Origin: Leucoraja erinacea
Taxonomy: Eukaryota
DNA: 64,000 bases
NCBI RefSeq assembly: GCF_028641065.1
Contig: NC_073406.1
Coordinates: 7,192,001-7,256,000, forward strand
Direction: 5' to 3'
Under the pieces are notes generated by a model. The model saw nothing but the letters and a program-made list of their open reading frames with translations, ran no database searches and was not told the origin of the DNA. Shown in pieces: positions 1,377 through 63,753 of the stretch. The translations under genes and the position numbers were made by a program. Position 1 is the stretch's first letter. Each line of letters begins with the position of its first letter.

Positions 1377-1814
<438 letters not shown>

Positions 1815-2217
1815 TCAAACGCACTTGCTTAAAAAAAGAAATGATTTGCTAACACCATGCGCTCAGGATTTCAAAGATTTGGGTAGGTTCTGGAAAAAAG
1901 AGTGGGAGGAAGCACTCACTATATGTGACTAGAATTCAATGTAATCCAGATGCAGAAATGTGCAAGGGACTGAACTAGTTTTAAACCAGAATCTTAGAGA
2001 GGTTGGAGGAGTTGACTTAGCTCCAGCCCCCACATCCCATATGGGATTCATGCACATGGCCAGTTTGTGAACTATACACCCAGACACAGCTCAAAGGCAC
2101 AAGCTCTGTTCATTTACTCACTCGGAAATAATAAGACCATCTTTGAGCTTGGTACCAAGCCCAGCCCAGATAATCTGCCACAGGCCAGGAACTGAACCAG
2201 ACACCTCCTTCCATCTG

Positions 2218-2435
2218 TTCAAGAAGGAACTGCAGATGCTGGAAAATCGAAGGTACACAAAAAAACTGGAGAAACTCTGCGGGTGCAGCAGCATCTATGG
2301 AGCGAAGGAAATAGGCAACGTTTCGGGCCGAAACCCTTCTTCAGTCTGAAGAAGGGTTTCGGCCCGAAACGTTGCCTATTTCCTTCGCTCCATAAATGCT
2401 GCTGCACCCGCTGAGTTTCTCCAGTTTTTTTGTGT
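2218..2435. mobile_element. Penelope pLTR-derived fold-back element with hammerhead core on both strands
   Basis: 94-bp inverted arms (2251-2344 / 2346-2439); core CTGAAGA-AGGGTTTCGGCCC-GAAAC-GTT; 15-bp TSD ACCTCCTTCCATCTG at 2203-2217 and 2436-2450. Confidence 0.8.
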
Positions 2436-3000
2436 ACCTCCTTCCATCTGCCCTGGGAGGCTGGGAGGCACTCAGCAGGTGGGCCGCCAGGAGCAAAGAG
2501 GGACCCGGTGAGGAGGGACCTGGCAGGCTGCAGCCACGTGCAGCAGCAGGGCTGGTTCACCGCTGCGAGAAGATAAGTGGACTGAGAACATTTGAAACCT
2601 TGTCGGTGCCAGAAATGTGCGACTCGTTGTGTACTGCCTCGGTGAAATCTGCTGTATGGTTTTACCAGATTGTATGCAAAAACAAATAATTTCACTGAAC
2701 CTAAATGCATGTGACAATAAAGTAGCGTTGGATCATTGACTGGTCCTCGATATGAGATGGTCCTGCACACACACAGGTGTCAGCGGTTATGGGGAGAAGG
2801 CAGGAGAATGGGGTTAGGAGGGAGGGATAGATCATCCATGATTGAATATATCTGATCTATGGTAGACTAGATGACTGAATGGCCTAATTCTACTCCTATT
2901 CCTTACGACCGCACAAGTGGTTCACCCGCCAATGCGCGGGGGGACACTGCAACGCAATGCATCCACAGAGAAATCTTTCAAGATGATGTTGATTACTTAC

Positions 3001-3127
3001 ATTTCTTCTTTCGCTTGCCACCTTTCCTCCTCCTTTTGCCCAAACCGGCCGATCCCTCGGATCGCACCGAGCAGCTGTGGATGCTGGCACTGTCCAGGTC
3101 AGATTCACCATGGTCATCTTCATCACT
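3001..3127 (-). CDS. CHD5: CHD5 exon (SDEDDHGESDLDSASIHSCSVRSEGSAGLGKRRRKGGKRKKK)
   Basis: gcag| acceptor, |gtaagt donor, 127 bp. ESDxDSASIHSxSVRSE motif of CHD5. Confidence 0.93.
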
Positions 3128-3883
3128 CTGCGGCACAAACACAAGTACAAGGAGACTTCTAGCTTTCAGGCTTCCACATTTCCTGCTTTATCTCTTATCA
3201 AGTAGCAGCTTCAGCTACACCAATATTGCTTTAGCCCCTGCTTCAAACAGCATCTTCTGGCAGCTTGTTCCATACACCCACCACCCTCTGTGAAAAGGTT
3301 ACCCCTCAGGTTCAAGGCGACATTAATCCCCACCTCCGAGCCATGTACAGACAGAAGATTTTAAGCTGGAAAGATTACAGAGAAGATTTACAAAGATGTT
3401 TCCAGGACTTGAGGGGCTGTTTCCAGGACTAGAGGGAAAATCTGGGCTAGTTAGGATGTTATTCCATGGAGGCAGGAGGTTGAGGAGTGATCTCATAGGG
3501 GTATATAAAATCCCGAGGGGAATAGATAGGGTGAATGCAAACTGTCTTTATTCCTACATAGGGGAATCTAGGTTTAAGATGAGGAGTGGAAGATTTAATA
3601 GGAATGTGAAGGGTAACTCTTTATCACAAAAAGGGTGGTGGGTATATGGTACGAGCTGTCAGAAGGTGTAGTAACAATATTTAAAAGTCACTTGCACAGA
3701 TACAAGGATAGGAAAGGTTTGGAGGAACATGGGGCAGGCAAACGGGACTAGTTTGGATGGGACATCTTGGTCAGCATGGATGGTTGGGCTGCAGGGCCTG
3801 TTTCCATATGATTCCATCAGGATTGGAAAGGATGTTCCTCCATCAGGAACATCACAATTTAAAACAGAACAGTCCAGTCTTAC

Positions 3884-4014
3884 CGAAGATTCTTTTTTCC
3901 GTTTGCCACTGAATCCTCCAAGTTTGATTTTCAGGGGCACCATCTTCTTGCCCTTTCCTTTCTTCTTCAGTTCTGCAGCCCGAGCACTTTTGCTTTTCTT
4001 CCGCACCCCCGGGC
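3884..4014 (-). CDS. CHD5: CHD5 exon (PGVRKKSKSARAAELKKKGKGKKMVPLKIKLGGFSGKRKKESS)
   Basis: acag| acceptor, |gtaaga donor, 131 bp, phases consistent with neighbouring exons. Confidence 0.93.
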
Positions 4015-5108
4015 CTGTGGACAGGAGGCGACAACCATAGTCATACCCCGAATGCTGTACGCTCACCTGCAACAATTGGGTCTCTCCACCCCCTCTCAGT
4101 TTCAAGCCCTGTTGTCCTGATGTGGACTCTCTGTGGATTACATCCCTAGCCACTGGAGTTGATATTACTTGTCCACAATCACCCTTCCGTCATGAACAAG
4201 CACAGAAGTTGATCACTGCCAGGCTATTATCACAGAGATGTTACAATTGATCCGAGCTCAACCCTGCCCTCACCAAATTCCGCACACTAACACCCATCCC
4301 AGTCATCAGAACCCTTCAGTGATACAACACATAGAGACGTTGTGTTGGTGTCAATTCTTCGGTGGGTTCGTCAAAATAATGCATCTTGCAAATATTTATC
4401 CTGACCCTCCCTGAAATTCACCGCTCAGGCGGTTATTCTGAGTCACTACAAATTTCTTCCTCAAAATGAATCCAGGAGACCCTCAATATACATTGCTCGC
4501 CTCTAGTTAATGGCGATTCTGAAATGGCCGTGGCATTACATGGAACGCAGAACAGTACAGACACAAAATGCTGGAGTAACTCAGCGGGTGAGGCAGCATC
4601 TCTGGAGAGAATGCCTCACCCGCTGAGTTACTCCAGCATTCTGTGTCTACCTTTGACTTTAACTGGTATCTGCAGTTCTTTCTTACGCAGAACAGTACAG
4701 CACAGGAACAGGCCCTTCTGCCCACAATGTCTGTGCTGTACATGATGTCAGGTAAAACTAATCTCTGCCTGCATGTGATTCTGATCCCTCTGCTCCCTGT
4801 ATATCCATGTGCCTATCCAAAAGCCTCTTCAATACCATTATCATATCTGCCTCCACCACTACCTCAGGCACCTCATTCCAAACACCAACAACCCTCTGTG
4901 ATAAAAAGAAAACTTATCCTGCACATCTCCTTTAAACTTTGCCCCTCGCGTCTTAAAGGTATGTTCTCTAGTCTTTGACATTTCCACCCTGGGGGAAAAG
5001 GTTCTGACTGTCCACCCTATCTATGCCTCCCATCATTTGATACTTCTTCAGGTCGCCCCACCATCTGTGGTGTTCCAAAGAAAACAATCCAAGTCTGTTC
5101 AACCTCTA

Positions 5109-5492
<384 letters not shown>

Positions 5493-7150
5493 TTAGTAAA
5501 GGAAGTTGCTGGAGTAACTCAGCGGGCAAGGCAGCGTCTCTGGAGAAAAGGAATACGTAACGCTTTGGGTCGAGACCCTTCATCAGACTGAAAGGATTAT
5601 TAAAAGATTCAGATAACCCGAAGGAAACAATTTAATACTGACAGACAATTTCAAAGTAACTAATACCTACATAGTACCTTTAAAGTATTTAAGTGGCTCA
5701 AAGCACTTCAAATGAGGGTTACCAGATCAAAATTGACAACAGTGTGAAATAATCACAGTGAGATGTTTACATTGCATTACACAGGCCATTCAGTCTGCTG
5801 GTTAATTCAATGTTTAGACTCGCTAGGAGACGCTTTCCATCCACCATGTTGCCCAATCAATGCTTTCTTCTCATTTCTTCCACTAGGAAGCTTTCCTACG
5901 GTACATCTCAAACCATTGGCTCAATTATTCTGAATTATTAATTCTGAAGGGTCACGACCCAAAATGTCACCCATTCCTTCTCTTTAGAGATGCTGCTGGT
6001 CCTGCTGAGTTACTCCAGCATTTTGTGTCTATCTAAAGTTTTCCATGAGCTCAGAGTAGTGCCGAATAGAGACTGGAAGCCGTGTTCTTTCAAGGTTGCA
6101 GGAGCAAAGCCTTGGAGCGTGTTAAATTAAAAAAAAACAAGTTTTCTCACGCTGCCTCCAGCTCTTTTACCAAGAATCTTAAATTTGACCTGTTACCTCG
6201 AAGTAGCAGCAGTAAGAAGGGAAATGTGGTGAGGGGAACTCCCAATGTGGTGAGCAAGGTGAGAAACACACGAGAGACCAAGCTGAAGTGTCAACTTTGC
6301 CCCACACATTGTTGACCTGCAAACTATTTCTAGTATTATCCATTGTTATACCAAGTCTCAACATTTACATATTTTGCTTTTATAGAGAAGCTATGTTTTC
6401 CATGGCAAAACAAAGGCATGAGATAAAGTGAAATGAATAAAAGTATTTTTAATTTGCACACAGAATATTGACTTCTTGGTGCAAGATGATTAAACAGTAA
6501 GAACCAAAAATAGAATCAGTTAATCCAGGGTTACAGAGACTGAGCAGGAGTTCAATTAATGGGATAGTCCTAACATACCCGCTGCTCGGGCTCAATGGCC
6601 TCCATCTGTGCTGCACCGTTTAATGTTATATAAATAGATAGGTCACAGCACACCTCATATAATCAGAGAAAACCAACACTAATTCTAGAGGGTACTTACT
6701 TTTAGAATGTTAGTTGGCAACAAAATATAACCAACTTTTCACTCCAATTACCAACCTGCTCTCTAACGAAGACATCTCGAAGAAGATGCAAAGTCCTTTA
6801 ACTGAACACTCTAACAATGTAGTGAATGATTGATCCCGGCAGTTAATGTCATTCATACTGATGCAGAAGACAACTCACTGTGTCAAAACCACGGCACTTC
6901 AGCGCCACACTGGGCCCAGAAGTGCATCTAATGCTTATTAGTCCAGACCGGATTGGACTTTCTGAATTGAAATGGATTCGGTTCCCTTTTAACAAGATTA
7001 ATTCTCTTGCTTTTTGGAATGCAACAGAACTGCATGGAACATTGAAGCAACCCGACACTTAATAGGACAGAACAGCTGAAGCAATCCAAAACAAAATTAA
7101 CCCTTTCAAAGAATGGATTTAAAAATAAAATATTCTTAATTAGGCTTAAG

Positions 7151-8466: not shown

Positions 8467-8560
8467 TTACAATACAATTGTGTTTGGTGATGTTGGTTGA
8501 GATTTTTTTTGATGTAATATTGGTCTAGGAACAGACAAAATATGTCTGATATTGGCTATA

Positions 8561-8797
8561 TAGTGCCCTCCATAATGTTGGGCACAAAGACCCGTCATTT
8601 ATTCATATGCCTCTTTACTCCACAATTTGAGATTTGTTATAGAAAAAAAATCACTCTGTACTGAGCAAAATCCTTTTAATAAAATCTGACAATGTTTAAC
8701 CGCACGTGATTTTTTCTATTACAAATCTCAAATTGTGGAATACAGAGGCAAATAAATAAATGATGGATCTTTGTCCCAAACATTATGGAGGGTACTC
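8561..8797. mobile_element. Tc1/mariner-type MITE
   Basis: About 90-bp inverted arms starting (C/T)AGTGCCCTCCATAATGTT, flanked by TA on both sides. Confidence 0.8.
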
Positions 8798-10076
8798 TAA
8801 CCCATTACAGGCATGAGGAATTATTCTGAAAACCTGGGGACAGAAACAGACAAATGTTTTTTGGATCAATAAAGGGATGATCTGGGTTGTTGGAGGATCA
8901 GCAAACAAGTGCTCCTTTTGGGGTATTGCTGATACAGGAAGGAAATATACAATAGTTTCAAACCAAGAGCTAAGATGCTTCCTTCCTGTATCGGTAGTGT
9001 CCGAAGTTCACGAGAAACCACGAGGCCCACTAAATGCTAAGTGTAAATCACAAATGTTGTTGCTCATATCAATTATATTTATACCTAAAATTACCAGATT
9101 TTAAGTTATAAAAGTGATGAAAGAGCAAAAGTTTGCATTAAATCTGAAGGATCAAATAAGGCCATAATACATAGGAGCAGAATTATCTTTCGGCCCATAG
9201 AGCCTGATCCGCCATTCCATTGTGGCTGATCTATTTTTCCCCTCTCAACCCCATTCTCCTGCCTTCTCCCCATAACATTTGACACCCTTGCAAATCAAGA
9301 ACCAGAGGGCATATGTTTACGGTGAAAGGGGAAAGATTTTAGAGGATCCTGAAAGGCAACTTTTTCACACAGAGGGGATGTTTGGTATATGAACCGAACT
9401 GCCAGAGAAAGTGGTTGAGGGAAGTACAATAAACAACATGTAAAAGACACTTGGACAGGGACATGAATAGGAAAGGTTTGGAGGGATATATAGGCCAGGC
9501 ATGGGAAAAGGGGACTAGCTTAGATGGGGTATCCTGGTCAGCATGGATTAGCTGGGCCAAAGTGGTTGTGACCAAACACTACATTGCATCAATTTTCATG
9601 GAGCAGAGCAAAGTATTGTTGTAAAAAGACACACAGAACAGGTCCCTCCCCAACTCATGGCAATGCTCATCTTTCCAGCAATATCACCAGAACCATGGCA
9701 TGTTATAGTTTGGGAGCTTGCTGGCCTTTAAGAAGATGCCTTGTTTCCTACATGTGAAAGGCATCCACACTTCAAAAACAACAAATAAGATGGAAAGCAA
9801 CTTTGAGCATCATGGGCATTGGAAAAGTGGCCACAGTGAGAGAAACTATGGAACAGTTGGATTTTGTAAATACCTCTCTGGTTAAATGATCTCCTTCACA
9901 AAGGAACCTTCTGCCAAGACTGCCTTTCCTCACTCATCAACGTGCTTGAAACTTAGAAGCCTCCTCAGTTCAGGGGCAATTAGGAGTGGACAACAAAACC
10001 CTAATGTTGGCAGCAACAATTACACCCCTTAAATTAAGCTCACAGCTAAAGTCCCTCCCATCCTTCCACACCCTAC

Positions 10077-25694: not shown

Positions 25695-25910
25695 AGATAC
25701 ACACAAAAAGCTGGAGTAACTCAGCGGGACAGGCAGCATCTCTGGACAGAAGGAATGGGTGACGTTTCGGTCTGAGAGTCTGAAGAAGGGTCTCGATCCC
25801 CAAAAACGTCACCCTTTCCTTCTCTCCAGTGATGCTGCCAGTCCCGCTGAGTTACTCCAGTTTATTTGTGTCAATCTTCAGATTAAACCAGCATCTGCAA
25901 TTCCTCCTAC
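25695..25910. mobile_element. Penelope pLTR fold-back element
   Basis: Inverted ACACAAAAAGCTGGAGTAACTCAGCGGG arms around a degenerate CTGAAGAAGGGTCTCGA core. Confidence 0.7.
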
Positions 25911-26758
25911 ACATTCTGTGGGTAAGATGTGATTGTATCCCTAAGGTCTGAGCACACCAGGTGTTATCACTTATTATTTCGCTGTGCATTTGATCAGCGC
26001 AATCTATCAAAGGTGTTTTCATGCATTCGCATGTAACTCAAGAACTACCATCCATTTACTATGGGGACAATGTCACGGGAACGTATCCTTGCAACGAGTA
26101 AGGCCATAGGCAGCTGGACGTCAGTTCTTGGACACCTCCTCCGTATTAACTTTGTCTTAAAAAGAGACTGATAAAGGGTGCTTACCTGAAACATCACTGT
26201 CCATTCCCTCCTCAGATGGTGTCTGGGTTACTCAAGCACTCTGCATTTTGCATAAGATTCCAGCTTCTGCAGTCTATTGCGACTGCCCTCCCCCTCCCTC
26301 CTTCAGTGTCCCCTTGGATGTCTGCACTGTTTACATTATGTTATTTTCATCAAAATCTCTTGGCTTCATTTTTGTCTGCAATGTGTCTGGTCATTCTGGC
26401 TGCCTGCCCGTATCTGTACTATTCTCTCATGGTATAATACACTCCAACCTCTGTGTCATCTGCACATTAATAAGTGGTGTTTCTGTACATCCAAGATCAA
26501 GTCATTAACACATTAAGCGAAGCAGCCATTCTAATACCAATGAGAACTCCACTACACACTTCCCTTCAGGGTAAAACACAACCGTTCACTCTATTTCCTG
26601 ACATTTGACTTTTTCAAGCTATCTTACTTCTGCTTCTTTTATTCCATGGGCTTCAATCTTGATGTCAAGCCTACAATGTGCTATTTGTCATATGTCCCAA
26701 AATGGCCCAGAAATTCTTACTTGCAGCAGCACAACAGGTATGTAAACATAGTACTCAG

Positions 26759-27151
26759 CAAAGATCCTATAGCAAGCAAGATAATACCACTCGACAAAAG
26801 TGACGTAGTACGGTCATGGGCAGATTCATGGGTAATTTTCGGCCCCATTTCCGTAACCGGCTTCCGTCTCCGCAACAAAGATCCCATAGCGGAGCAAAGA
26901 TACTAGTGTGGAGACGGAAGCCGGTTACGGAATCCTCGTAAAAATAAGTTATTTGGTAAAAATCTTCTCATTTTCAGAATTATAATTTATTAACACAAGC
27001 TGTTCCCCCGCAACGTTGATTACACTGCGAGTCGGGTCGGGTTACTGAAATGGATGAAAAAAAAGGCACACATACGGCTCCGTTGCGTTCTACACGTCAG
27101 CCCATTGCATTTAGCAGGAGTGGTCTATCTTGCTCCGCTATAGGATCTTTG
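26759..27151. mobile_element. MITE with CAAAG termini and 8-bp TSD (P-element-like)
   Basis: TIRs CAAAGATCCTATAGC(GG/A)AGCAAGATA; TSD GTACTCAG / GTACTTAG; internal third TIR copy between 23-bp inverted repeats. Confidence 0.75.
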
Positions 27152-30100
27152 GTACTTAGTAGATACCATAACATGGAGTTCATAGTGATCAATGGTTTGA
27201 TGATTGTTGGGAAGAAACTTAGGAAGATACACATGGGTGTGGGCAGATGGGTTTCTTCTTGTTTGGTTTATCTTTCCTAGACAATATTATTGATTGTAAT
27301 CAAGCAGAGGCAGAACTAATCAGAGCAGGTTCTTTCCCACAAATTGTTGTCCAACATACACAAAATGATCTTCGACAAAGTACTACAAAATTGGAACTAG
27401 TATGGATTTCAAACATGAACAGAAGCAGCTGAATTACTTCCTCTAATATAAATGTGTTACTATAATTCTAACATTTTGCAGCACAGAAACAATGAACCAG
27501 AAGGGATGCTGCAAGTCTCTGGAGGAATTTTTCTCTGGGAATGCCAGGGGTTGCAGGGAGACCCGATAGAAGCATATAAAATTATGAAGCTTTAGAAAGC
27601 ATAGAAAGTTATAGCATTTTTCCCCAGGATAAAAAAAATCAAATACTAAAGGGCAAAGCTTTATGGTGAGAGGGACAAAGTTTAAAGATGTGTGTGTGGG
27701 GGTGCGGTGGGGGGGGGGGGGGGTAAAAAGCACAGAGGTGGTGAGAGTTTGGAACAAGCTACCAGGGATGGTGGCTGAGGGAATTACGATTTGCCTCAGA
27801 CTGTTGGAAATTTTTAATCTATTTATACAGATTTGTTAGAATCACTTGTTATTTGTGAAATTGGTGTAGTTGACTGGCAAATTTATTTTAACAGTTCTAA
27901 GTTGATGGCCTAACAGACACACTACAGATGGTTCGCTTTCACACTATGCATTACGTAGTCAGCAAAATCTCACAAGATGCAAACATCGCAAAGTAAGAAA
28001 ATAACCATAAATAACAGACTGCATTCAAAAACATTCCTACAGACTCCTGAATTTCCCAAAAAATGACAACACGCAGATAAGTGGCATATGATGAACTATA
28101 AAATTGGCACCTATTTAATTATCCACGACTGAAATTTCCACCAATTTCTTTATCTAAAAAAATCAAAGCGTTATTATTCCCACATTCATCTTCCAAGTGG
28201 CTATTCTTTCGAACTGTAGCTGCCAGGTGTGGAGCTGCCAGGCAAGGATCAACAAGCATGACTGCAGAAGACCATCTTTTGGCCGTATCTAAGCCTTTTG
28301 AACAAGGTTTATTTATCAGCAGGCAAGACCTGAACACTAGCAGTTTCTACCTTTCCTGAATCACAAAGCATAGTGGCTAATAATCTGTTCCTTCCCTGCC
28401 ACCAAATACCTGTAGCCAACACAGCAGATAACAGTGAAGAGCCCCAGTCAGTTCCTCACTGGCTAAAGCAACTATCTATGGAGCTGTACCGTACACACCT
28501 AGATGTTGCCAAGACTCAAGGGCCGAAGCTTCGGGGAGATGTTGAGCAGGCTAACACTATCCTCCTTGTGCAGAAGGCTGAGGGGTAATCTTTTACAGGT
28601 GTTCAAAATCACAAGGGGAATACACCAAGACTTTTTCCCGAGTCTAGGGGAATCAAGAACCAGTGGGCATAGATTTAAGGTAAGAGGTGGAAGAATTATT
28701 AGGAATCCGAAGGGTAGCATTTTCAGAGGATGGTGTGTATATAGAATAAACTGCCAGAGGAAGGGACAATTACATTTAAAAGACACTGGGACATGTACAA
28801 GAATAAGAAAGGTTGCGAGGGATATAGACCAAATGCAGGCAAACAGGACTAGCTTGGATGGGGCATCTTGGTCAGCATGGATGAGAGTAGCGAAGGGCCT
28901 GTTTCTATGACTATCTCCGATAACTCCGAATACAGCTGAAAACATTTGTTGAAATTAGAGGGTAAAAACAAATCGATAGAGCATTGGAAAACAAGTTCTT
29001 GAACTAGACGAGAATAAATAGGCATCAAGTGAGCAAACTAACTTTAATCGTCATGCAGAAACATCCACAATGGCAAGAACTGAATGTGGGTTTAAATTGT
29101 TGACTGATGGAGATAGTCAATTGATGCATCCCACAAACTAAAGCTTGTTAACAAGCAAGGGAAGTTCAAACCTGGTTAGTGCGAGACTGTTTCACAGGGT
29201 GTAGGATAAATAACATGCAGTTCCCTTAAAACTAAACTAAATTGTTTAGAGAAACAAAAGCACCTGGAAGGCATTAAGAATAGGAATTCATTGCCCATAG
29301 CAGTAAACATAGAAAATAGGTGCAGGAGTAGGCTATTCGGCCCTTCGAGCCTGCACATTCAATATGATCATGGCTGATCATCCAACTCAGTATCCCGTAC
29401 CTGCCTTCTGTCCACAAGTGCTATTTGTGACAGAAGTGACAAAAACTCTCATCACACATAAAACAATGCCTGGTTGCATTCGGTAGAGCCATAACCTGCA
29501 GGGCCACAGATGCTGGATGGTAGATCAGTTTTTTTTCAACCACCAAAGACACTGGGTTAAATGGCCTCTTCCAGCATCAATGTTCAGTAATTCCAAAGTA
29601 TGCCACGGAAGCAAAGCCAGAATTGTGCATTGAAATTAGCCAAAAAAGGTACAAAAATATACAAGAAATGAGCGCACCATCATGGATGATATACTATTTC
29701 ATTCTACCTTTCTGCACACTCCAACTTCTTAATATCTTGAATTAATCTTGATTATACTCCGTTTCCTTTGGGGTTGGACCTTCAAAGATTCAGAAAGTCT
29801 TGCAGTGAACCTGTTCACTGAACATATACTAATGTGGCCCTTCAGCTCATTGTATCTCTACTAGTTCATCCAACTGGTCCCGTACCTTTGTTCCTTAAAC
29901 AGTACTGCAAATGGTTCCCTTTTTAATTGTATATTTAATTATTTTAGAACAAGTAACAAAGAAAACTAGTGTTAAAATTCAGAACTCTGAGACAAGAAAA
30001 ATGACAGCATTTAAATGTGATTTCAGTAACCCTATGTCCAGGATCATGATTCCACATATTCTTAATTTTTAAGTTTGAATGTTCAGATTAAAATGATTTT

Positions 30101-30950
30101 TGAAAATGGAATTTGATACAGCTTTCCACATTGTTTGTTGTGAAGTGTTATAGGTATAAGTGAGGCCGGATAGTACGTATGGATCTAATTTTTTTCACAT
30201 TCATACTTTCATCCAATTATTGAGATGCTGCTTGAAAGACAAGGGACGAGCTGTAGGAGGGACCCATTCCTTCTCTCCAGAGATGTTGCCTGTCCCGCTG
30301 AGTTACTCTGGCATTTTGTGTTTACCTGGGGGTGGGGAGGAGACAGGATATTTGGAAGCTGAAGATGATACGTTATCTTGAAATACATTGTTACATACAG
30401 TGGGGGAAGATACCCAGCCCAAGGTGCAATGAAAACAGTCAGGTCAGGCATAGTCTGTGGGAGAAAACATTAATATGTCAAGTTGAAGATACTTTGTCAT
30501 GAATGGGAAAGTATTAACTTTATGTTGCAAAGACAGCGGGGGAAGAAATTGGACAAAGACGCAGATAGGGTAAACCCAGGGTTGCCATGGGGATAAATGA
30601 TAAGATTATCTGGTCAATGGGGCCAGTTAAATATCCAAATTTAAAAGCCTTGAAGCAAGGCAAATTAAAGACTACAGAGGAATGGAGGAGAAATGGCAAA
30701 ATGCTGAGCTGTCCACATCAGTCTGTGCTAATTGTCAGAAAAACCAAGCCACCTATCAAAGCTGACTTACAAAAGGAATGAGAAATTCCAATACGGACAG
30801 TGAAAGCAAGTTGTAGAATCCAAATAGGGAAAGAAAATGAACAAAATGCAATATTTATAACTACATGCATTAATAATAACCTAGAACACAGCAGATGACT
30901 TCCAAGCAAAGAAAGAAACCCAGAGCTTCACGATTTTCCTTTGGACCAAT

Positions 30951-30956
30951 TTTATT
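30951..30956 (-). terminator. RPL22 polyadenylation signal AATAAA
   Basis: tttatt on the + strand about 40 nt past the stop, followed on the transcript strand by a U/GU-rich tract. Confidence 0.8.
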
Positions 30957-30994
30957 GAATATAATTTGTACAAAAGTCCAGACCAGGTTTGGGC

Positions 30995-31192
<198 letters not shown>

Positions 31193-34100
31193 CTACTTGG
31201 TCTTTCCCAATGTTTTACCCCACCTATTTCCTTCAGTCTAAAGATCAAAGCCTGTCAAATCTAGACACCATTTCCTTTCACTGCTTTCTTGTATCAAGGT
31301 TTGATCATCTGACAAATATAAGGAATCACAACAAATCTAAAATAAGAATAACCAATAATTTTTGATGAGCTTATTAGCAGAAGAGATGATGGCAATATAT
31401 TTTCTATACGAGACAAATTGTAATCCACCTGCCCTGCTCAGAAAAAGATCAGACAGGTGGGTTATCTTGGTGTTGATCATATTAAACTCAACCATTCATT
31501 ACAAGGGGGCCAAGTAAATTGTGAACGTGCACACTCTGGATCTCATATACACATACAAGACAGTGAAGACACAGCAGTGTGAGGGGATGGAAGTAGTGCA
31601 CATTCAGACCTGTCCCCAGGACTACATTGGGCCAAGAGCTGGTACTGGATGTCTTTCAGTCTTGGTCAGAGGATTCAATGCGACCGGCACATCATCCGTC
31701 ACAGAACTTTCAGGGCCATCATTGCTCACACATCAGTTGAAGAGTGATGGCGAAAGGCAGAGAAAGGACAAGCTGGCTCCCAGCAATAGCCACAAGAGCC
31801 TCCAGAAACAAAACTGTCCACCAAAACCAATCCTTATGGCCTGTGCATTGTCCCTAGACCTCCATACCCACATGCTTATCCAAGTATTTTAAATGCCACC
31901 ATCGTATCTAGCACCACCATCACACCTGGCAGCGCATTCTAGACATTCACCACTCTTGCCCGCAATTGAGTTTTACATTTTCTTTTAAAATTTATACATT
32001 TGGTAGGGCCTTAACTATGATCATAGTAAAATAAACACTGCAATCCAGAAGGAACAGGGCAAGACAAAATTGATTGCTGTTTCACCATACTCAATACCTC
32101 TCCCTGCATTTGAGAACACAATACATACAAGTACAACAAGAGGGGGATGTTTAGGATTTTAAAAAATAATAATTAGATAGTTCAGGTACCAGAGGATGGA
32201 TAGATTATATTCTATCCAAAGAGCAGAGGTACAAGTAATGCCATCTGAGATTGATAAGTTTATCCATATACAGAGATGGGAGAAGAAAATAACAGGGGCT
32301 CCAACAATTGCAATTATTTTCCAATCTTGTCTGGCTGTAGATACGCAAACAGCAAACTAACACTTATTTTAGACAGAAGGAATATACCAATTAGATTTGT
32401 TTATTGTTAAATATACCAGAGTGCAATTAAATTTCTTGTTCATATGAAGCTCAGAGTAAATAATATATACAGTAACGATAAACACCAAAATACAAGAGTG
32501 CGAAGCAGCAGAATGGTGCACAAATAATGCAAAATTTGACTAGTGCAAAATAACAGGCTAGCTAGTCTACAATGCAAAGGCCAGTCTACAATGCAAAATA
32601 GAATTCCCAGAATGTTTAAAATTCTTTGAAAAGAACAGTTAGAATAGTGTTAATGGAAGACTGAAATATTGAATTGAAATAAGATAGAATTCAATATAAT
32701 CCACAATTTCTTTGAGCTCCTCAAAATGGAATGATTAAAAAAAAGATCACAGCATCCACCAAATGAGAATCTGGTTTCAACAGCAGCTCATTATCAATGC
32801 AAGACTAATGGTTGACAAATATTTTAATGAATAGAAATTTATTAAATGAGGATTCCCAGGACTCCTCGCTTTTCATAACATGCACGAATGATTTAAATGT
32901 AGAAATCATGATTAATGCTCACACTGAAAAGTGAGTACATGGTTAAAGAGAGGAAGAAAGCTGCTGGATATCAATAGATTGGTTTCCTATATGGGATAAT
33001 TTTAAGCAGGGTGGCCAACTAGAGTTTCGAAACTTTTCTCAATATTAAAATGGCATCAGAAAAGGAATCACTGTAAAAATTATGATGTGGTATTTATAGC
33101 TTGGCGATGGGAATTCCCGGTCAATACATTTCACACAAGCCTCCTCACATTCTTTATGAAGGTTAAGATATCTTATTTCTTTACTAGCATAATACAAAAA
33201 CACAATGGCTCCCAATTGATCCAACTCAATAAACTTGCCTTGTCTATCAAATCTCCCCGAACCTCCATGGCTCCAGGAAAAAAAAACGCAGCCTAAACAT
33301 TCCACCCCCATAAATGATGTCCTCCAATCCAGGCAACATCTTGGTGTACCTCCTCTGCATCCTCTCCATGGTGTTGCAATTAAAATCGTACAAACTTCAA
33401 TTGCAGTCTAATCAATGATTTGCCAAGTTGTAATATAATATTCCAATTCATATATACTATGCCCTGACTTTGAAGCAAGCATATCCGATGTCTCCTTCGC
33501 CATTCCTTTGAACTCTATTTGGGGAACAATGGCCTTGAACTCCAAAGTCTCTGCCCCATTACAGGAAGGATGTGGCGGCTTTGGGCAGGTTGCAGAGGAT
33601 TACCAGATTGATGCCTGCATTGGGTGGTATTAGCTACAAGGAGAGGTTGGTCAGACTTGGATTGTTTTCGCTGGAATGCCTGGGGTTGCAGGGAGAATAT
33701 AAGTATATAAAGTTATGAGAGGCATAGATAGGATAGACTGTCAGAACCTTTCCCACCCTGGATGAAAAAAAATCAAATACTAGAGGGAAAAGCTGAGAAG
33801 GGCAATGTTTAAAGGAGTCGGGGCAAATTGTTATTTTACACAAGGGTGGCGGGTGCCTGGAACACTTCTGGGGTGGTGTTGAGGCAGATATGGTGGAATT
33901 TAAGAGTCTCTTGGATAGGCATATGAATCTGCAAGGAATGGAGGGATATGGATTATCACAGGTAGATAAGAGATGGTCATGACATTATGTTCGGAATAGA
34001 CATTGTTGGTCAAAGGGCTTGTTCCTGAGCTGTACTGTTCTATGTACTGTCAACATTTGTAAGTGCCATACAATTTATTGTACATGCCTTACTCCTTTTG

Positions 34101-34844
34101 AGTTGCCAAAATGCAGATCCTCACATTTGTTTAAATTCCGTCTGCCAATGGTCTGCTTAACTTCCCATCTGATCTGTATCCTGCATTAGCCATAGACAAC
34201 TTTTCTCACTATCCTCAACACCACCTGTTTTTGTTATCCACTATCTTATTAATCATATCTCCAAATTGTCGATATATCACAAACCAAAATTCAAGCACTA
34301 GTCATTGTGTCATACCACTAATCAGACTTCTAATTTAAAAAACCCTTCCACTATTATTCTCTGCCTTCCATCACCAAACCAATTCTGAATCAAAGTAGCC
34401 AACAACTGTAGGTTAAGAGGTTTGTCCTAAATTATTCGATTGATATTTATGGCCATGTTCCAATATGACCAGAATAAAAACATAATTTCCTCAATAACCA
34501 GATGCTTCCATGGTTCTATAACCTCTAATACAGGTACCAATAAAGGATTGCATCCTCAGCCTGTTCTCCACTTGCAACCAAGAAACAAGGGGTTCATATA
34601 GCCGCTAGTCTAATTCTGCAGATTTAGTAAGTTCCATGCAAATTATAATATTTTGCTTTCCTGAGGCTAAAGTGTTCAATCCCAGCATTATTTCTTTTGG
34701 AACATCACATGCCACATTTGGTTTTAACCAGCATAAGCTAAGCAAGTCGGAACCTCTGTCTGAAATATTTGGCATATGAAGAGATGGCATTTGAAAAGGA
34801 ATATTTTTCTTTAAGAATAATTGCTCCCTTTGTCTTCCAACTCA

Positions 34845-35084
<240 letters not shown>

Positions 35085-36056
35085 TTACCAATGTAACCAA
35101 CAAGATTACATTTTGTAAATTCCCACTCTTGATGACAACCTAATGAGCTTTTTTAACCAGACAGGCCTGGACACGAGAACTGGCACTGATGCGTCATCTG
35201 CCACAAGCTAGCATTGCCTGGCCTTGAACAATGGGGAAGGTGCAACAACCATACAATCACAAATTTCCTGCAATTTCAGAACACCCAAAACCATTTTCAA
35301 ATGCAAGGGGAAAATATACAATTAATGCATGCCCCTTAACAGGAATTATGTACAGGAGATCTTGGGATCCAAGACAATAACACCCTGAAAGTATCAACAC
35401 AAGAAGATATAGTGGCAAAGGCGGCATATGGTATGCTTGTTTAAGGTCACAGCAATGAGTATAACAGTCAACAAGTTTTGATGCAGCTTTATAGGACTTT
35501 AGTTAGGCTGCATTTGGAGTATTGGGTGCCGTTCTCCTCACCCTATTACGGGATGTATGTGGAGGCTTTGGAAAGGATGCAGAGTTAGGCAGTATTAGCC
35601 ACAGGAAGAGGTCGGACAGACTTGGATTGGTTTCTCTGGATTGCTGGCGGTTGTAGAGACTAGATAGAAGTATACAAAATTATGAGAGACATTATCTAAG
35701 TAGGTAGTCAGAACCCTTTTCCCATGACGGAAAAATCAAATACACGAGGACATAGCCTCAAATTGTTAGTGCCATTTAAAAAACTTTTAGATAGGCATAT
35801 GGATATGCAGGGAACGGATCTGGATCACATGCAGGCAGAGGAGACTAGTTTTGTGTTCATCACAGACAATCTGGGCCGAAGGGCCTATTCTTGTGCTGTA
35901 CTGTTCAATGTTCTATTTGAGTGTTCATTCCTGATATTTATTAACTCTCATGCTACCAGCCAATTGTATTTGAGGAATTCCAATGATTTTGTTTCAGCCA
36001 GCTTTCTAGTGTAACAAAAATGTATCACTCATATTAGAAACCGTAAGCATCGAAAC

Positions 36057-36090
36057 CAAAGATACTATAGGAGCTCCTCTCGTATCTTTG
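36057..36090. mobile_element. 34-bp palindromic remnant of a related CAAAGAT element (17+17 bp)
   Basis: CAAAGATACTATAGGAG|CTCCTCTCGTATCTTTG between perfect 8-bp direct repeats ATCGAAAC. Confidence 0.7.
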
Positions 36091-37218
36091 ATCGAAACTA
36101 CATGGCTTCTTTAGAATCTTTAGATTCCATCTACTATAAATTAATTTGACATTAAAACAATAGAAAAAAAGTGCTTCACTCATGACCCATGTCAGACGTG
36201 GTCAGGTCTAAACCAATAGTTGAAAAAGCCAGAAGACAAGCCACATTATTCCCCACAGAACTCCTCCCAACACTCAGCATCAAGATCCACAAACTAAAAC
36301 CCACATTTTTCCAATGGGTCATAGACAAAAGCAAGGCAAAGATCGCCCAAGTACAATGAAGTCATCTGGTATTTTGGGTAAATGCAAAGCAATCAAAGCA
36401 CTCAATGCAGTAATTTTCAACACATTTCCCAACTAATACATTCACTTAATATATGCAACCTATATGCTGCACTCACTAGGAATAGTTTGCAATCTATGTG
36501 GAGTGAGCTGTCAACAAGGAGGTTGGTTCCACAACTTAGCTTAGATCATGGAGAACACATGATCTACAAAGGTTTGGTGATCAGTCTTCAATGGTCAGCT
36601 TATATTCAACAAACCATAGGGAAGATAGGAGTGAACACTCAAATGACACAAAAAGCTGGAGTCACTCAGTGGGATAAGCAGCATATCTGGAGAGAAGGAA
36701 TGGGTGACATTTGAGGTCGAGACATCTGAAGAAGCTGAGTTACTCCAGCTTTTTTTTTGTCTATCTTCAGTTTAAACCAGTATCTGCAGCTCCTTCTTAC
36801 ATAAACCATAGGGAAGTTGTCCAGATGTACAGCATCAGAAAGTATCCGATTCAAGAACACTTGGGGGAAGGACTAATATTGAAGGGAATCTGTAATTGTA
36901 TCTGTCTATCTAGTCCAAGGGGAATAAAAGAAGTCAACTTGCTCCAACCGTTTGATATGAAAAGTTGCTGAATCGCATTTCACATTTTATTATATGAAAT
37001 GTCAGGAGCTAGGAAAGTCACAACAGGTGAGGTATGAAACAGTCAATGGGAAATGGACAGAGATTGCAGATGCTGGAATATTGAGCAAATAAAGTGCTGG
37101 AGCTGAGTGGGTCAAGCATCTGCGGTGGGGAATAGACAACTAGAAATCATGCCACATTGCTAGAAATGGACTCCATCCTGTTGACATTTCTAAGTAAAAA
37201 ATGCACCTACAGCACCAA

Positions 37219-37502
37219 AGGGCAGCACAGTGACTGCCTTACAGCGCCAGGGACCTGGGTTCGATCTTGACTATGGGTGCTGTCTGTACAGTTTGTACAT
37301 TCTCCCTGTGACTGAGGGGTTTTCTCTGGGTGCTCCGGCTTCTTTCCACATTCCAAAGACGTGCAGGTTTGTAGGTAAATTGGTGTCTGAAAATTGTCCC
37401 TAGTGTATAGGATAGAACTAATGTACAGGTGATTGCTGGTTGGTACGGACTTGGTGGGCCATGGGGCCTGTTGCCCTGTTGTATTTCTAAAATAAACTAA
37501 AA
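37219..37502 (+). mobile_element. tRNA-derived SINE copy
   Basis: GGTTCGATC B-box, same core and TAAAATAAACTAAA tail. Confidence 0.75.
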
Positions 37503-37514
37503 GGGCCCAGTAAT

Positions 37515-37777
37515 AAAAATGTAATAAAAATAAACCGCAGTTGCTGGTTTATACCAAAGATAAACACAAAATGCTGGAGTACCTCAGGTCAGGCTGCATC
37601 TCTGGAGAAAATGGAAGATAACATTTTAGGTCAGGACACTTCTTCAGACTGACTTTAGAAGGGAGGAACCATGCAATCAGCCTGAAGAAAGGCCCCGACC
37701 CAAAACATCACCTATCCATTTTCTCCAGAGATGCGACATGACCCGCTGAGTTACTCCAACATTTTGTGTTTATCCAA
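37515..37777. mobile_element. Penelope pLTR fold-back element
   Basis: Inverted pLTR arms with degenerate cores; GGCCCAGTAAT duplicated at 37504-37514 and 37778-37788. Confidence 0.7.
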
Positions 37778-39550
37778 GGCCCAGTAATTGCTAGTCCACA
37801 AGCAATTCCTTCCTGATCCACCACTTCCTACCTACCCAACAGGACATGGAGCACCTACTGTACTGGCCAAAGAAATGTGGTCCAAAATGTGTCAGACCTA
37901 TAGAAGGAACCCAGCCACAAATCCTCTGAAAACTTAACAGCCAGCAAGTCCATATCCTCAGCTTATAGTTATTTTTAAAATAAATTAAAAAATTAATAAT
38001 TAAACCAGTAACACTGAAGCAAATAAAATTTAAAAAGAAACCAAAAGCATCTATGCATACACAATTAAAAATGCCAAAGTAAGCACAAATAATTTAAATT
38101 AAGCCCTCTACCCCTTAATCTGCTGCCCCATTGAAATGAGAGAGCTTTTGTATCCTGCCAGTGGTGCAGAATCCAAACTGCAGTTCAATTTCAGACTGGG
38201 ATCCACTTCTGGACTCCCTTTTTGTATTCTGAATCAATTTATCAAATCTGGGACTTTCACATTTGACAGTCCACACACGGAATTTCTAGTTTTATTTTAA
38301 TTTATGCTCATGACTGCACTGGAAGATCCAAACCAATGTTACATCAGAATCAGTTTAAAAAAATACATGCCTATATTTTTATCATATTCCATGATATTGA
38401 ATACAATAGTTCAGACAATCCAAAGCCAACTCAAAGATGCAATATAAGGTTTGCAAATTAATGGCAGTGTATTTTAACAGGCATGAGATTGGAGGTACAA
38501 GTAGGAAAATGATAGAATCCATGTAGATGAGCCAAACAGCCACATATCTACAAAAAGATAGAAATGTATGAAGGTTGTTAGTTCTCAAGGATCCTAGGTG
38601 CGCATTGATACATAGGCCGGATTCCAGACACAATGAGGATCCATTGCAACCAATTTTAAATAAAACATAATTTTATGTAATCGTCCAGTTTCAAATTTTG
38701 ACTGTCCTAAAATAGCCAGTTACCAAAGATAGACAGAAGTTGGTTGTGCAGTTTGTAATTCAAGGAATTAAATCCAGAACTGCATACAATTTAAAAGTAG
38801 ATTGGAGGAATTAAACTTAGTATCATTGTCGTACAAAAATGTTGCAATTAGCACATTTTGTCACCAGGAAATTAGAACATAGAACAGCACAACAGAGGAA
38901 TGGTCCCTTTGGTGCAGCGTTTGTGGCAAATTGATCTTACCTGCCTTCATGTGATCCATACCCTTCTATTCCCTGCATCTCCATGTGCCTAGTGAAAAAC
39001 ATCTCAAATGCCACTATCGTAATCTGACTCCACCACCACTATAATTTAGGCCCCCACCACCCCCTGTGTAAAATAATATTTTGCATCCACCAATGTCGTC
39101 CTCCTGCCTGAACCTGCATATTAAAACTACAGTGAAAACATTATGCTGCCATAAAATTTCACTAGTTACAGAATAACAAAATGAATAGAAGAGCACAGTA
39201 ACGTCTTGAACTCAGAACCTTCGATTTAGAAGCAATAATTCTACCAACTAAGCCACGGCTGACAACTCGCATCAACTCAAAATGGAAAGACATCTCTCAC
39301 AACATGCTGTGTAAGAAGAAACTGCAGGTGCTGGTTTAAATCGAAGATAGACACAAAAAGCTGGGGTAACTCAGCAGGACAGGCAGCATCTCTGGAGAGA
39401 AGGCATGGGTGACGTTTCAGGTCTAGACCCTTCTTCTGACTCAGAGCATACTATCAGCAATTTCCATATGACATACAGCATTGACAAAGTCGCATCTGTG
39501 GCCCATGCATTATATTCCTGTGTTACCCAATAAAGACTAGGAAAACTTAC

Positions 39551-39652
39551 AAAGTTGGAAGCATCCATGATTCCATCTTCCACTGGATGTGTGCAGTCTA
39601 AGGTGAACTTCAGCACCTGTTTCTTCTTTTTGCCCCTTGTTAGAATCTTCTT
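39551..39652 (-). CDS. RPL22: RPL22 exon 2 ([34 protein letters not shown])
   Basis: ttacag| acceptor, |gtaagt donor, 102 bp; eL22 signature [17 protein letters not shown]. Confidence 0.97.
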
Positions 39653-41026
39653 CTGTAAAGCAAAAGTCAAACAGTTAAAGAGATGCAGAAGGGAAAAATT
39701 CTGAAATGATAAAAGTATCGTGCAAAAAATAACCAGTTTTGTTTATTATCACGTTTACCGAGTTACAGTGAAAAGCTTTTGTTGCGCGCAATTGAGTCAG
39801 CCGAAAGACAATACATGTTTACGATTGAGCCATTTAGTTTACAATGTCACATCAGGGATTAAGTTTAAAATAATTTAGCTTTTTCATTTTGAAGGAGGGT
39901 CCTGATCCGACATGTCACTAAAGGAATATTTTATTTAAGACCGATGTTTTTTCAGAATTAATTGTGATTATTCAGGTTCCTGAAGGCTGTGTATATGGGA
40001 GGTATGGTATAAGTACATTGCAATGTACAGCAGTAGTAAGTTTTTATAAAACATATTCTGCTTGCTGAATGCTGACAATTATATGGTTGCTGCTGACAAT
40101 ACCAACTTTGTGTACATCTCCTTTTTCTCATCTGAAATGGCTAGTTATAGCAAGTTGATCACATTTTCACCTCATCAGTGATATTCTCTTCATTCTGCCC
40201 AATCTTCCTAAACATTATCTATTACTTAAAACTTTTCTTTCTGACAACCATCAACTGTTTCTACTTGCAGGATTTCTGGCCGATTTGCTGAATGCTTCGA
40301 CCGTTCTAATTTTAGAACACATTGATGTCTGGAAACAAATATAAGACATGGCAAGCATGGCACATTTTCCATCCTTGAAGTGAATCAAATGGATTTTTGA
40401 AACAATCCGTGGTTTCATGTTTACTGAGGCTAACTTTTAAAAAAAGTTCCCTAGTTGCCTTCTTAAGATCTAAACTCAGATTGTTAAACAGCTGTCCAAC
40501 AATTTTGCCTCTTGGAACAGTAAGGAATGGCTGCATTTAGCATGTGCTGTGAAAGCGCAAATGACAGATGTCGGCTACTGATCTCGAGGCCGGACAAGGT
40601 GAAAACCCGTCTCTGATCAAGAAAAAAGTTTTTACTTTATTTGTAGATCTTTAAATTAATTAAATGGGTTGAAAAACTTCCCAAACACGTGCCACGCGGG
40701 GCGAAAGATCAGCTCAACATTTCACCACTAAAACGGAAAGCAGCCGATCCCAGCAGTAATGAGGGACAGTGCTGACGCCTGGGCCGGTTGGTGCAAAGAC
40801 CGAGAACAGTCTCCACATTACAACTCGCACCCGAGGCCGAGAGCTCAGGCCTACACCCACCGGCCCGCCCGCCCGCTAACCGCCTGTCCGGGGGCCGGAA
40901 GGATAAATCGGTACAAAGGCCCAACGCGGGGAACTCAAGGACTCATGGTTTCGAAGAGCGGAGAGAACCACTCGGTTTTTCCGCCACAGCCACCGGCAAA
41001 AGGCTGGGTCGCGGCGGCGGACTCAC

Positions 41027-52373: not shown

Positions 52374-55061
52374 ATGGGATGGGGCGTGGTTGGTGGGATA
52401 AATGAGTGAGGGGAGTAAAGAGGCAGAAATGGGTTTGGGAAAAGAAGATAGACACAAAGTGCTGGAGCAACTCAATGGGTCAGTGTTAAGAAGGGTCACG
52501 ACCTGAAACATCACCCATCCTTTTTCTCCAGAGATGCTGCCTGACTCGTTGAATTATTCCAACACTTTGTATCTCTCTTTGGTATAAACCAGCATTTGCA
52601 GTTCTTTGTTTCTACATTGGGAAAAGAAGAGTTAGCTCTGTTCCTGATTCTGATTTGGTGAACTTGACTGGCAGGGCCAGAGGTGGAATGGTTCAGGGGC
52701 TCTGACTCCATCTGCTAGCAGGGACAGCTCATCTAACACACTGTTGACTAGTGTAACGTAAGTTGCTGTTTGGGAATCCGATGAATCTGGTGGAATTACA
52801 TGTTTTACACTTCAACATGCTCCTTTTATTGTGTAGCATTTTCAGTGAGGTGAGGACAGGAGGGAATGACCTGGGGATAATTCTTGGCCCTTGTTTTGGG
52901 TCTGGAGAAACAGGGCAGATCACAAATGGACAGTTAACTCATGCTAATAAGCTTCTGTCACCCACTCAGTTCTCTGTAACTAAGGGGAAGTATTAATCGC
53001 ATCAGGCTTATTGTTGAACAGCTGCACAATAAAAGCCGGGCTACTTTTAGAGTGATTGGAATGCAAGGCAAACCAGGATGACAGAGCCAAGATAGCAGAG
53101 GCATGCAAACCCGCAGCAGTAAACAAAAGGCTTTCTAATCTAATAGTGGACTGAAATCCAGCACTGGCCAATTAAAACACGCCCCGACAATCCCGTCCAC
53201 ACCAAATCCCTCCACCCCATGCCACCCCAACCTCTTAACAAAAAAAACCTGATGCCAGCTTTTGTTGTTGGGCAGTCCTGGTGTGTACCTTTCAGGCTGT
53301 AATCCCTGGGTGACATTTACATGGTGATATGACCCTCTTGTCAATTTTTAATTTTAGATTTGACATTGCATAAATCTAAACCCAGTGGGATAAAAAATAA
53401 AATCCACACCATGTATATGATTAGATTCAGGCCTGTTTATTCACGGTTTCAAAGTGTTATTTACATTTCCAAAGTAGCGTTGAATTGTTGCTTTTGGATG
53501 AAAATTACAATTGGATTGTGGGCATGGCCATGAAGATTAGGAAGTCCAGGAGCTGAGCCAGCGATAGAGGCATAGCGCGGGGCAGCTGGAACCCTTTGTG
53601 ATGAAACGCAATCCCCCACAGGTGACTGGCTGGCTGTGTCTTTTTTAGTCACTGGGCTGCTCCCCTTGCCAACCTGATGTTCATTTTGTCCCTGCAAGCT
53701 TGTCCAGTCACCACTGATCAGCCGTCGACAGTCCGCTCACCGACGGAGACTCGGGACATTCCATTGACGGCACGTTCGGAGGGCGGCCAGCGTGAGGCGG
53801 GGGAGGGGGTGACTGCGGGGTGGGAAGGAGGGCGGCTCGTGTGTAACCTGGATGACTGAGAAGACCGAGGATCAGAGATGAGGCTGGATGAAACTGATGA
53901 CCACAGGTGAGAGCCCCCATTTCTATCTGAGTTTGACACATTGACTGGTGAAGTGGCTGAGGTGCAAGGTGGTGTTTCGCAGATCCACCGGGAGGAACTG
54001 AGTTGGTTCAGCAATGTTTTTACAGGGAAACGAGTGATGTTTTGACTATCTTGGGCTGGTGCAGTAGTATGGGGCCAAGCCAGATTTGTTGCCTTGCCTC
54101 TGACAAAATTGTGTGATCTTTTTGAGAGTCAAGAATGTTTAATTGTCATATGTACCAACAGTGGAACATTGAAACTCTTACTTGCAGCTGCAAAACAGGC
54201 CAGTAAATGCATTGCACATAGATAATGTATAATAAACAAAATTAATAACCACATTAGGGCATAAAACGGGAAACTTCCTGAGGCATGAGCATGTAATGTG
54301 ACGGTTCATCATGGTGCAGAGGTAGTGCCAAGCATGACATCTCTAGCCTATCAGATGAATGAAAACAACATGCCATGGTATAATATACATCAGGGTGTAT
54401 AATATTGTCCTGGAGCCCGGGGCAATGTTACTCACTATCATCACCAACAACAGATTATCAGGAGGTTAACACATTGCTGCTTGTGCCAAGTTGCCGTTCA
54501 CAGGTTTGCGTTCGTATCTCCTGCATTACCCACGGTGACTAAATCTCAATGCTACATCCTCGGCTGGGAGCATTTCGCTCATCCTGAAATCTGTTATAGA
54601 AATGCTTTTTTTTCCTTTCCTTCACAGAAATAGACAAAAGATAGAGATTTTCAATGGGCCAGGCTGCATCTGTGGAGAGAGACACAATTAATATTTCATG
54701 TACTTGGCTTTTCATCAGGACTGGGAATTAGAAAACCAACATAATGTGAATGGCGTGGAAGGAAGAAGGAGGAAAAATCAAAAGGACGGAGATCAGGAGA
54801 GTACGATGCAAACCTTCGCATCTCTTTTCTCTCTTCTCTCGTTCTGATGAAAGGCCTTTAATCTGAAATGTTAACTCAGTTCTCCACAGATACCACCTGA
54901 CTGGCTATGTATTTCTAGCATTTCTGATTTTATTTCAGATTTCCAGAATCTGCGGTTTTTGATTTTGTGATGCAAACGGAGATGGGTTTCGGCTGAGAAA
55001 AATTAGTGATTGTTTGATATTCACTGAAGAATTGTCAGAAACAAGACATAAAAAGGAGATG

Positions 55062-55248
55062 GTGCACAAAAATGCTGGAGAAACTCAGCGGGCGCAGCAG
55101 CATCTATGGAGCGAAGGAGATAGGCAACGTTTCGGCCCGAAACGTTGCCTACCTCCTCCGCTCCATAGATGCTGCTGCACCCGCCGAGTTTCTCCAGCAT
55201 TTTTGTGTACCTTCGATTTTCCAGCATCTGCAGTTCCTTCTTAAACAA
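55062..55248. mobile_element. Same fold-back family, folded at hammerhead stem II
   Basis: Hairpin centred on GTTTCGGCCCGAAAC; 14-bp TSD ATAAAAAGGAGATG at 55048-55061 and 55249-55262. Confidence 0.8.
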
Positions 55249-63485: not shown

Positions 63486-63753
63486 ATGGAAGCAGAAGCA
63501 GCGGCGGGGACAGATGCGGACAGGGAGCCGGGGCTGGCGAGTGTTTGCCAGACTGGCGAGTGTTCGCCGGGCTGGTGAGTCGCTCGCTGCAGCTCTGGCC
63601 ATGGAGCAGCCTCAGTGCAAGAGTCCCGGGCCGTCGGAAGCGTTGCGCTGCTGCCGTGAGAGTCTCTGTGCCGAATTCACCCAGGTGACCGGCATGGATC
63701 AGGCTGCGGCTCGGTGCATCCTGGGAGACAACCAGTGGCTGCTGGGAGTTAGT
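63486..63753 (+). pseudogene. TDP2: TDP2 (TTRAP) exon-1-like fragment, N-terminal UBA-like domain
   Basis: GCCATGG at 63601 opens MEQPQ..RESLCAEFTQVTGMDQAAARCILGDNQWLLG|GTTAGT, resembling TDP2 RRxLCxEFxxVxxxDxAxAxCxLxENDWxxE, with a donor at the expected exon-1 end. An upstream ATG at 63486 is shifted out of frame by a 19-bp tandem unit. Confidence 0.7.

Follow-up and report, generated by a model that had tools for sequence, protein, structure and literature searches.

An intron of RPL22 in Leucoraja erinacea holds a 34-bp, almost palindromic pair of transposon ends inside a perfect 8-bp direct repeat, and we put the probability at about 0.55 that this structure is the excision footprint of a long-stagger, P-type transposase. 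On this reading a DNA transposon would have inserted and duplicated its 8-bp target, as the intact duplication and a related miniature element (MITE) of the same geometry indicate. By analogy with the Drosophila P element, the transposase would then have cut about 17–18 bases inside each end and left a long single-stranded stub on either flank, and the two stubs would have been fused by end joining, either as blunt ends (17+17) or with GC as an overlap of 2 nt (18+18), so that both target copies stayed intact. The scar would afterwards have been inherited by related skate-like species; it is bridged in one sequencing run and probable in two more. In those features that could be compared, the site behaves as a P footprint would. 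P footprints are already known from the laboratory, and P-like elements are known from zebrafish and mosquitoes. A literature search in which subscription papers and Repbase/Dfam, where the family may already be classified, were poorly covered returned nothing on P elements in skates and nothing on natural scars of the P type in vertebrates.

Structure of the site

The window, by which we mean the whole 64-kb stretch of DNA that was analyzed, contains the two copies of the direct repeat, ATCGAAAC, at 36049–36056 and 36091–36098. They are identical at 8/8 positions, and the repeat is 8 bp exactly, since lengths of 5–7, 9 or 10 bp give no match. The insert between them (36057–36090) is 34 bp long and is made of a left end stub on the forward strand at 36057–36073 (17 nt, or 18 counting the next C) and a right end stub on the reverse strand at 36074–36090 (17 nt). 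These halves are inverted copies of each other at 15/17 positions, with mismatches at 36079 and 36081, and a 10-bp palindrome occupies the center of the stub. A perfect 8-bp duplication around a 17+17 bp palindrome is exactly what the first-pass annotation had claimed, and it was confirmed by a scan of the window for exact 8-bp direct repeats that enclose an insert of 20–60 bp with at least 80% palindromic positions. The 8+34+8 structure was the sole match in the window, against none in each of 20 shuffles in which base pairs were shuffled within 2-kb blocks.

Single-strand folding of the 50-mer gave z = −2.9, nothing beyond what any palindrome gives. We propose no function for the stub and regard it as inert intronic DNA, a single site without sign of function.

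A MITE with related ends

A non-coding MITE of 393 bp lies at 26759–27151. Its inverted ends are exact over 15 nt and imperfect over about 34 nt, and it is flanked by a direct repeat (26751–26758 and 27152–27159) that agrees at 7/8 positions. The left arm of the stub is identical to the MITE end at 13/14 bases, which bears out the earlier remark that the arm begins like the terminal inverted repeat of this element, and the stub and the MITE are the only such ends inside a direct repeat within the window. We regard the MITE as a putative sister family with related ends; as the parent of the 34-bp stub it is only a candidate. The MITE end carries the C that would be the 18th base of the stub, and where the stub has its junction, the MITE end is self-complementary over no more than 2 nt.

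In its build the MITE seems composite or nested. Within it, two tandem end-like 19-mers (26876 and 26895) are enclosed by an inverted repeat that is perfect over 23 bp (26849–26871 and 26910–26932), and the second 19-mer begins like the left arm of the stub. One 6-mer sits 43 nt from one end of the MITE and 53 nt from the other; the 10-nt offset recalls the unequal subterminal spacing at P ends, and the two copies may be regarded as candidate binding sites.

The orthologous site in related fishes

Four of the 24 fish runs (X15, X3, X20, and X7) were aligned over 35870–36340, where the flanks are about 1–4% different from the window; runs with small shares were left out, except X7. One record of X15 (record 7) spans the site with six differences, all of which fall outside it, so the stub and both target copies are identical in X15. 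In X3 the 34-mer is covered by two overlapping records (one to 36085, the other from 36061), and likewise in X20 (to 36080 and from 36060). The stub is very probably present in both, although neither run has a record that counts as bridging under the 31-letter rule. For X7, the alignment of the left record ends at 36080, and the right one, record 32, has 53 unaligned letters. The first-pass annotation had looked to the orthologous intron of related species for empty or full sites; the comparison gave the stub instead, in X15 and probably in X3 and X20, with neither an empty nor a full site among the records listed for the four runs.

The summed depth over 36062–36077 was 39, 79, 35, and 31 times the single-copy depth in the four runs. 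Other loci with similar ends must therefore number in the tens; the depth is not a copy number, because stubs and the ends of full elements are counted together. The stub ends belong to a multi-copy family. Record 8 of X15, which aligns without gaps over 36046–36099 with seven differences and has unrelated outer flanks, is a second 34-bp stub locus. In X3, X20, and X7 the contigs are interrupted within the 34-mer, which suggests that identical 30-mers exist elsewhere, as would be expected from a mobile mini-element and equally from a cut at a fixed position.

Such a mini-element, an end-only minimal MITE that arose a single time and was mobilized thereafter, as a unit of 34 bp, by a transposase acting in trans, with an 8-bp duplication on each arrival, would account for the second gapless locus, for contigs that break as they do at repeated sequence, and for the lack of a full element at the orthologous site among the four runs. 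We nevertheless consider it rather improbable. A 34-bp duplex would probably be too short to join both ends in one complex, and a transposase with a fixed cut position would likewise make identical scars at independent sites. The P-MITEs described in PMC1562414 keep about 100 nt of each end.

Some smaller features of the alignments may be recorded here. The mismatch of the arms at 36081 may be recent, to judge by differences and alignment stops in X3, X20, and X7, and the older stub may have been palindromic at 16/17 positions. At 36108–36114, 10–16 bases to the right of the duplication, the window has four substitutions and one extra base that are private to it relative to X15, X3, and X20; these may represent an allele, a local repair event or an assembly error. 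A repeat tail near the stub (35872–35916) dominates the listed loose alignment ends and is also present at other loci, and joint rows running from 35900/35915 to 36053/36054 were read as other loci that hold this tail together with the end motif and were set aside.

Stubs in metagenomes

A pattern made of the ends only, two 14-base arms with 0–16 bases between them, which admits lengths of 28–44 bp only, matched eight metagenome loci (L001–L008), no viral contigs, and no prokaryote genomes. One of the eight (L004, 501–538) was rejected as a transposon stub, since it is a hairpin between bacterial genes whose flanks are inverted, and it does not enter the counts of seven that follow. The other seven lie in animal-like DNA and are 32, 33, 36, 38, 38, 39, and 40 bp long. 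All of them share the 14-base end, and their interiors differ in 7/7 cases. Five of the seven are flanked by a direct repeat of 7–9 bp with at most one mismatch, for which the chance rate is 0.4% per site; the repeats agree at 8/8 positions in L001, 7/8 in L007, 7/7 in L006, 6/7 in L005, and 9/9 in L003. The remaining two, L002 (501–540) and L008 (501–538), are end-only stubs in which no duplication is clear. In L002 the left 7-mer recurs in the right flank as a near-tandem copy.

Three stubs (L001, L003, and L007) have one end type, and the junction is the single place where they are unalike, which is what separate repair events would produce. Seven interiors among seven stubs, three of them of one end type, argue against the amplification of a single minimal MITE. 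Made1 (PMC3814204) offers a comparison in this respect, for it is an element of two ends only, as the stub is, but as described there one junction was amplified many times, in contrast with the varied junctions of the metagenome stubs. In the fish runs a single repeated junction is possible, given record 8 of X15 and the interrupted contigs.

Five of the seven stub contigs carry names with the same prefix and cannot be counted as independent with regard to host. The host DNA is likely invertebrate, judging by an exon of Delta24-sterol reductase on L008, the only locus of the seven examined; the closest matches of this exon are unnamed proteins, and its named relatives are scallop proteins (53%).

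Patterns of a single end matched 67 viral and 44 prokaryote loci, none of which had the partner end in a direct repeat, and we regard these as chance matches. One of the loci examined as a stub (L083, ~5972–6018, reverse strand) was rejected as a bacterial terminator-like hairpin that lacks direct-repeat flanks. L004 and L083 thus serve as negative controls: they are bacterial hairpins with the same arms, but their flanks are inverted or are an A/T run. That such hairpins exist is the one point in favor of a chance palindrome or a local duplication, with no transposon involved, as the origin of the site in the window. Neither hairpin has direct-repeat flanks, the shuffled windows gave no match, and these ends recur on the MITE of the window and on five stubs in other DNA that have flanking duplications; we consider such an origin most improbable.

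The lengths bear on another alternative, in which the stub would derive by internal deletion from a transposon with an 8-bp duplication, of the hAT or another type, and no long stagger would be needed. It could arise by sister-chromatid gap repair that copied a few end bases and was followed by end joining, or by collapse at a self-complementary end motif. Aborted gap repair with microhomology is described as making miniature elements in several superfamilies (PMC3814204), the central 10-bp palindrome of the stub would be a ready microhomology if the parent end had one, and the search range of 28–44 bp favored this size class. We still think this origin unlikely, though it is the alternative that we take most seriously. 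Aborted repair has no reason to stop at 14–21 nt on both sides in 8/8 cases, and the sister MITE end offers just its 2-nt overlap at this place. None of the seven stubs falls at 28–31 or 41–44 bp, which speaks against deletion (P = 0.01, with the exact range picked after the fact). Selection is the weak side of the lengths as evidence for a footprint: the scan range was preset at 28–44 bp, and under a flat distribution over that range a spread as tight as 32–40 bp has P = 0.06, which does not establish a peak.

Junction geometry

In the excision junctions of the Drosophila melanogaster P element given in tables 2 and 3 of PMC2895639, as at the site in the window, neither 8-bp target copy is lost, and the fused stubs between them are mostly 28–44 bp long. 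Both tables show up to 17 nt of each end retained, mostly 13–17, and joins that are blunt, use an overlap of 1–3 nt or contain filler. We counted 39 of 47 published junctions there as 28–44 bp long; this set comes from repair-mutant flies, one deletion row was left out, and one out-of-range row is one base short. The median length was 37 bp for the eight stubs including that of the window and 32 bp for these fly junctions (P = 0.06). Two traits of the P-type footprint are thus found, namely intact target copies around fused stubs and junctions that vary between sites, the latter in 7/7 metagenome stubs. The skate scar differs from the fly junctions in being natural, old, and fixed in the germline rather than induced, in the sequence of its end, and in that the stubs extend to 18 nt in several relatives.

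The junction in the window can be read equally well as a blunt 17+17 join or as an 18+18 join in which GC overlaps by 2 nt. Among the metagenome stubs, L005 has perfect 18-nt arms around three extra bases, L007 reads 18+18, the 18th base of L003 agrees with that of L007, and L001 and L006, both shorter, may have overlaps of 1 nt. Taken together, the ambiguity at the window junction and the 18-nt relatives suggest that 17–18 bases were kept rather than exactly 17. The first-pass annotation had attributed the scar to a P/THAP9-type transposase with the 17-nt cleavage geometry of Drosophila P. The remnant of transposon ends within an intact target duplication stands, whereas a cut at 17 nt does not follow, since 18+18 fits too, and the assignment to P/THAP9 stays tentative, both window targets fitting the hAT rule, NTNNNNAN, as well.

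Proposed superfamily of the transposase

The placement of the enzyme in the P/THAP9 superfamily is an inference; it draws on the scar and on duplications of 7–9 bp, and no protein enters into it. Ends that start with CAAAG agree with the terminal consensus of P elements and with that of hAT elements alike. Duplication sizes of 7–9 bp, as in P, were found at both window sites (8/8 and 7/8) and at five metagenome stubs, and PMC4168063 and PMC3698922 report members of the P superfamily with 7-, 8-, and 9-bp duplications. hAT families with 7-bp duplications exist as well, according to PMC4455052. The same source gives a working rule of Repbase by which two families belong to one superfamily if their duplication length is the same and their first 11 bases are alike; by this rule the 8-bp metagenome cases and the two elements of the window would be one superfamily, and the rule is silent on which.

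Target motifs give little help. The hAT target rule is fitted by both window sites, which counts in favor of a deletion product of a hAT element, and by L007, but it is not fitted by L001, which counts against it. The Drosophila P target consensus reported in PMC2577343 has the same T and A as the hAT rule, and motifs at so few sites cannot separate P from hAT. The mode of excision is more telling. Non-autonomous hAT elements of the Ac/Ds and Tol2 type resemble the window in their 8-bp target, but simple hAT excision, as described in PMC3878927, passes through hairpinned flanks and does not leave element ends behind as the stub does. The retained ends at the window site thus rule out a plain hAT footprint, though not a product of hAT gap repair. 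The imperfect ends of the MITE and its unequally placed 6-mer may amount to a P-like arrangement.

The MITE may also be compared with the P-MITEs of Anopheles gambiae (PMC1562414) and with BuT5 (PMC3698922), which have the same build, with ends of about 30 nt, no coding capacity, and an 8-bp duplication (8 or 9 bp for BuT5). Those elements are tied to coding P masters, unlike the window MITE, and the 34-bp stub is without subterminal sequence. The zebrafish element Pdre2, with its transposase zfTHAP9 (PMC10983969), shares with the skate elements a vertebrate host, an 8-bp duplication, and short inverted ends that start with CA, but its 13-bp end is of another sequence. Excision by zebrafish THAP9 is reported in the same work to give larger flanking deletions, and forward transposition was not obtained in its cell assays, which counts against the P-type reading; a footprint shaped like the skate site was not noted there.

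A long-stagger footprint could also have been left by a transposase outside the P superfamily. All of the footprint evidence is blind to the protein, and beyond the first two bases the ends differ from those of zebrafish Pdre2 and Drosophila P. The 7–9 bp duplications fit P, and the 17-nt stagger is presented in PMC7776569 and PMC2895639 as unusual and particular to P, the long staggered cut being described in these accounts for the Drosophila enzyme only. We regard a non-P enzyme as improbable, even more so than the minimal MITE; were the enzyme to fall outside P, the existence of another transposase with a long stagger would be more surprising still.

If the P-type reading is correct, natural scars within intact duplications would show that P-type insertion and excision were completed in the vertebrate germline, the stagger could be read from genomes across animals, and the scars would also serve to classify a skate MITE family without a known master. 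More tentatively, and with less than even confidence, we suggest that an undescribed P-like lineage, with one 14-base end common to skates and invertebrates, was active in the vertebrate germline, and cut about 18 rather than 17 bases in. Its fossil scars would number in the tens or more in each genome, and the cleavage geometry might be read from them.

Genomic context

The site is flanked by two exons of RPL22 on the reverse strand, which places it within an intron. The downstream exon (34845–34967) matches the Pfam family Ribosomal_L22e (PF01776) with an E value of 3.9e-12 and the upstream exon (~39551–39652, limits approximate and read from the frame) with 2.5e-05. The earlier placement in intron 2 of RPL22 is accordingly upheld as to the intron, which is presumably number 2 on a four-exon layout of the gene. 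A Pfam search of 150 of the 160 stop-to-stop frames of at least 80 aa in the window matched no transposase or THAP family, and an Rfam search of 26000–40000 gave no matches.

Four long near-perfect palindromes occur elsewhere in the window, at 2251–2439, 55058–55214, 8559–8799, and 25705–25866, with arms of 94, 78, 90, and 63 nt. Two of the four have a 1-nt spacer, and all four are by eye without direct-repeat flanks. The gene order of the window is a CHD-type gene (1377–5492, reverse strand) with PHD and CHDNT domains by Pfam, RPL22 (30998–39742, reverse strand), and the first coding exon of TDP2 (63601–63744, forward strand). The last of these was named from two matches among five candidates, both of them skate TDP2 proteins (81% and 70%).
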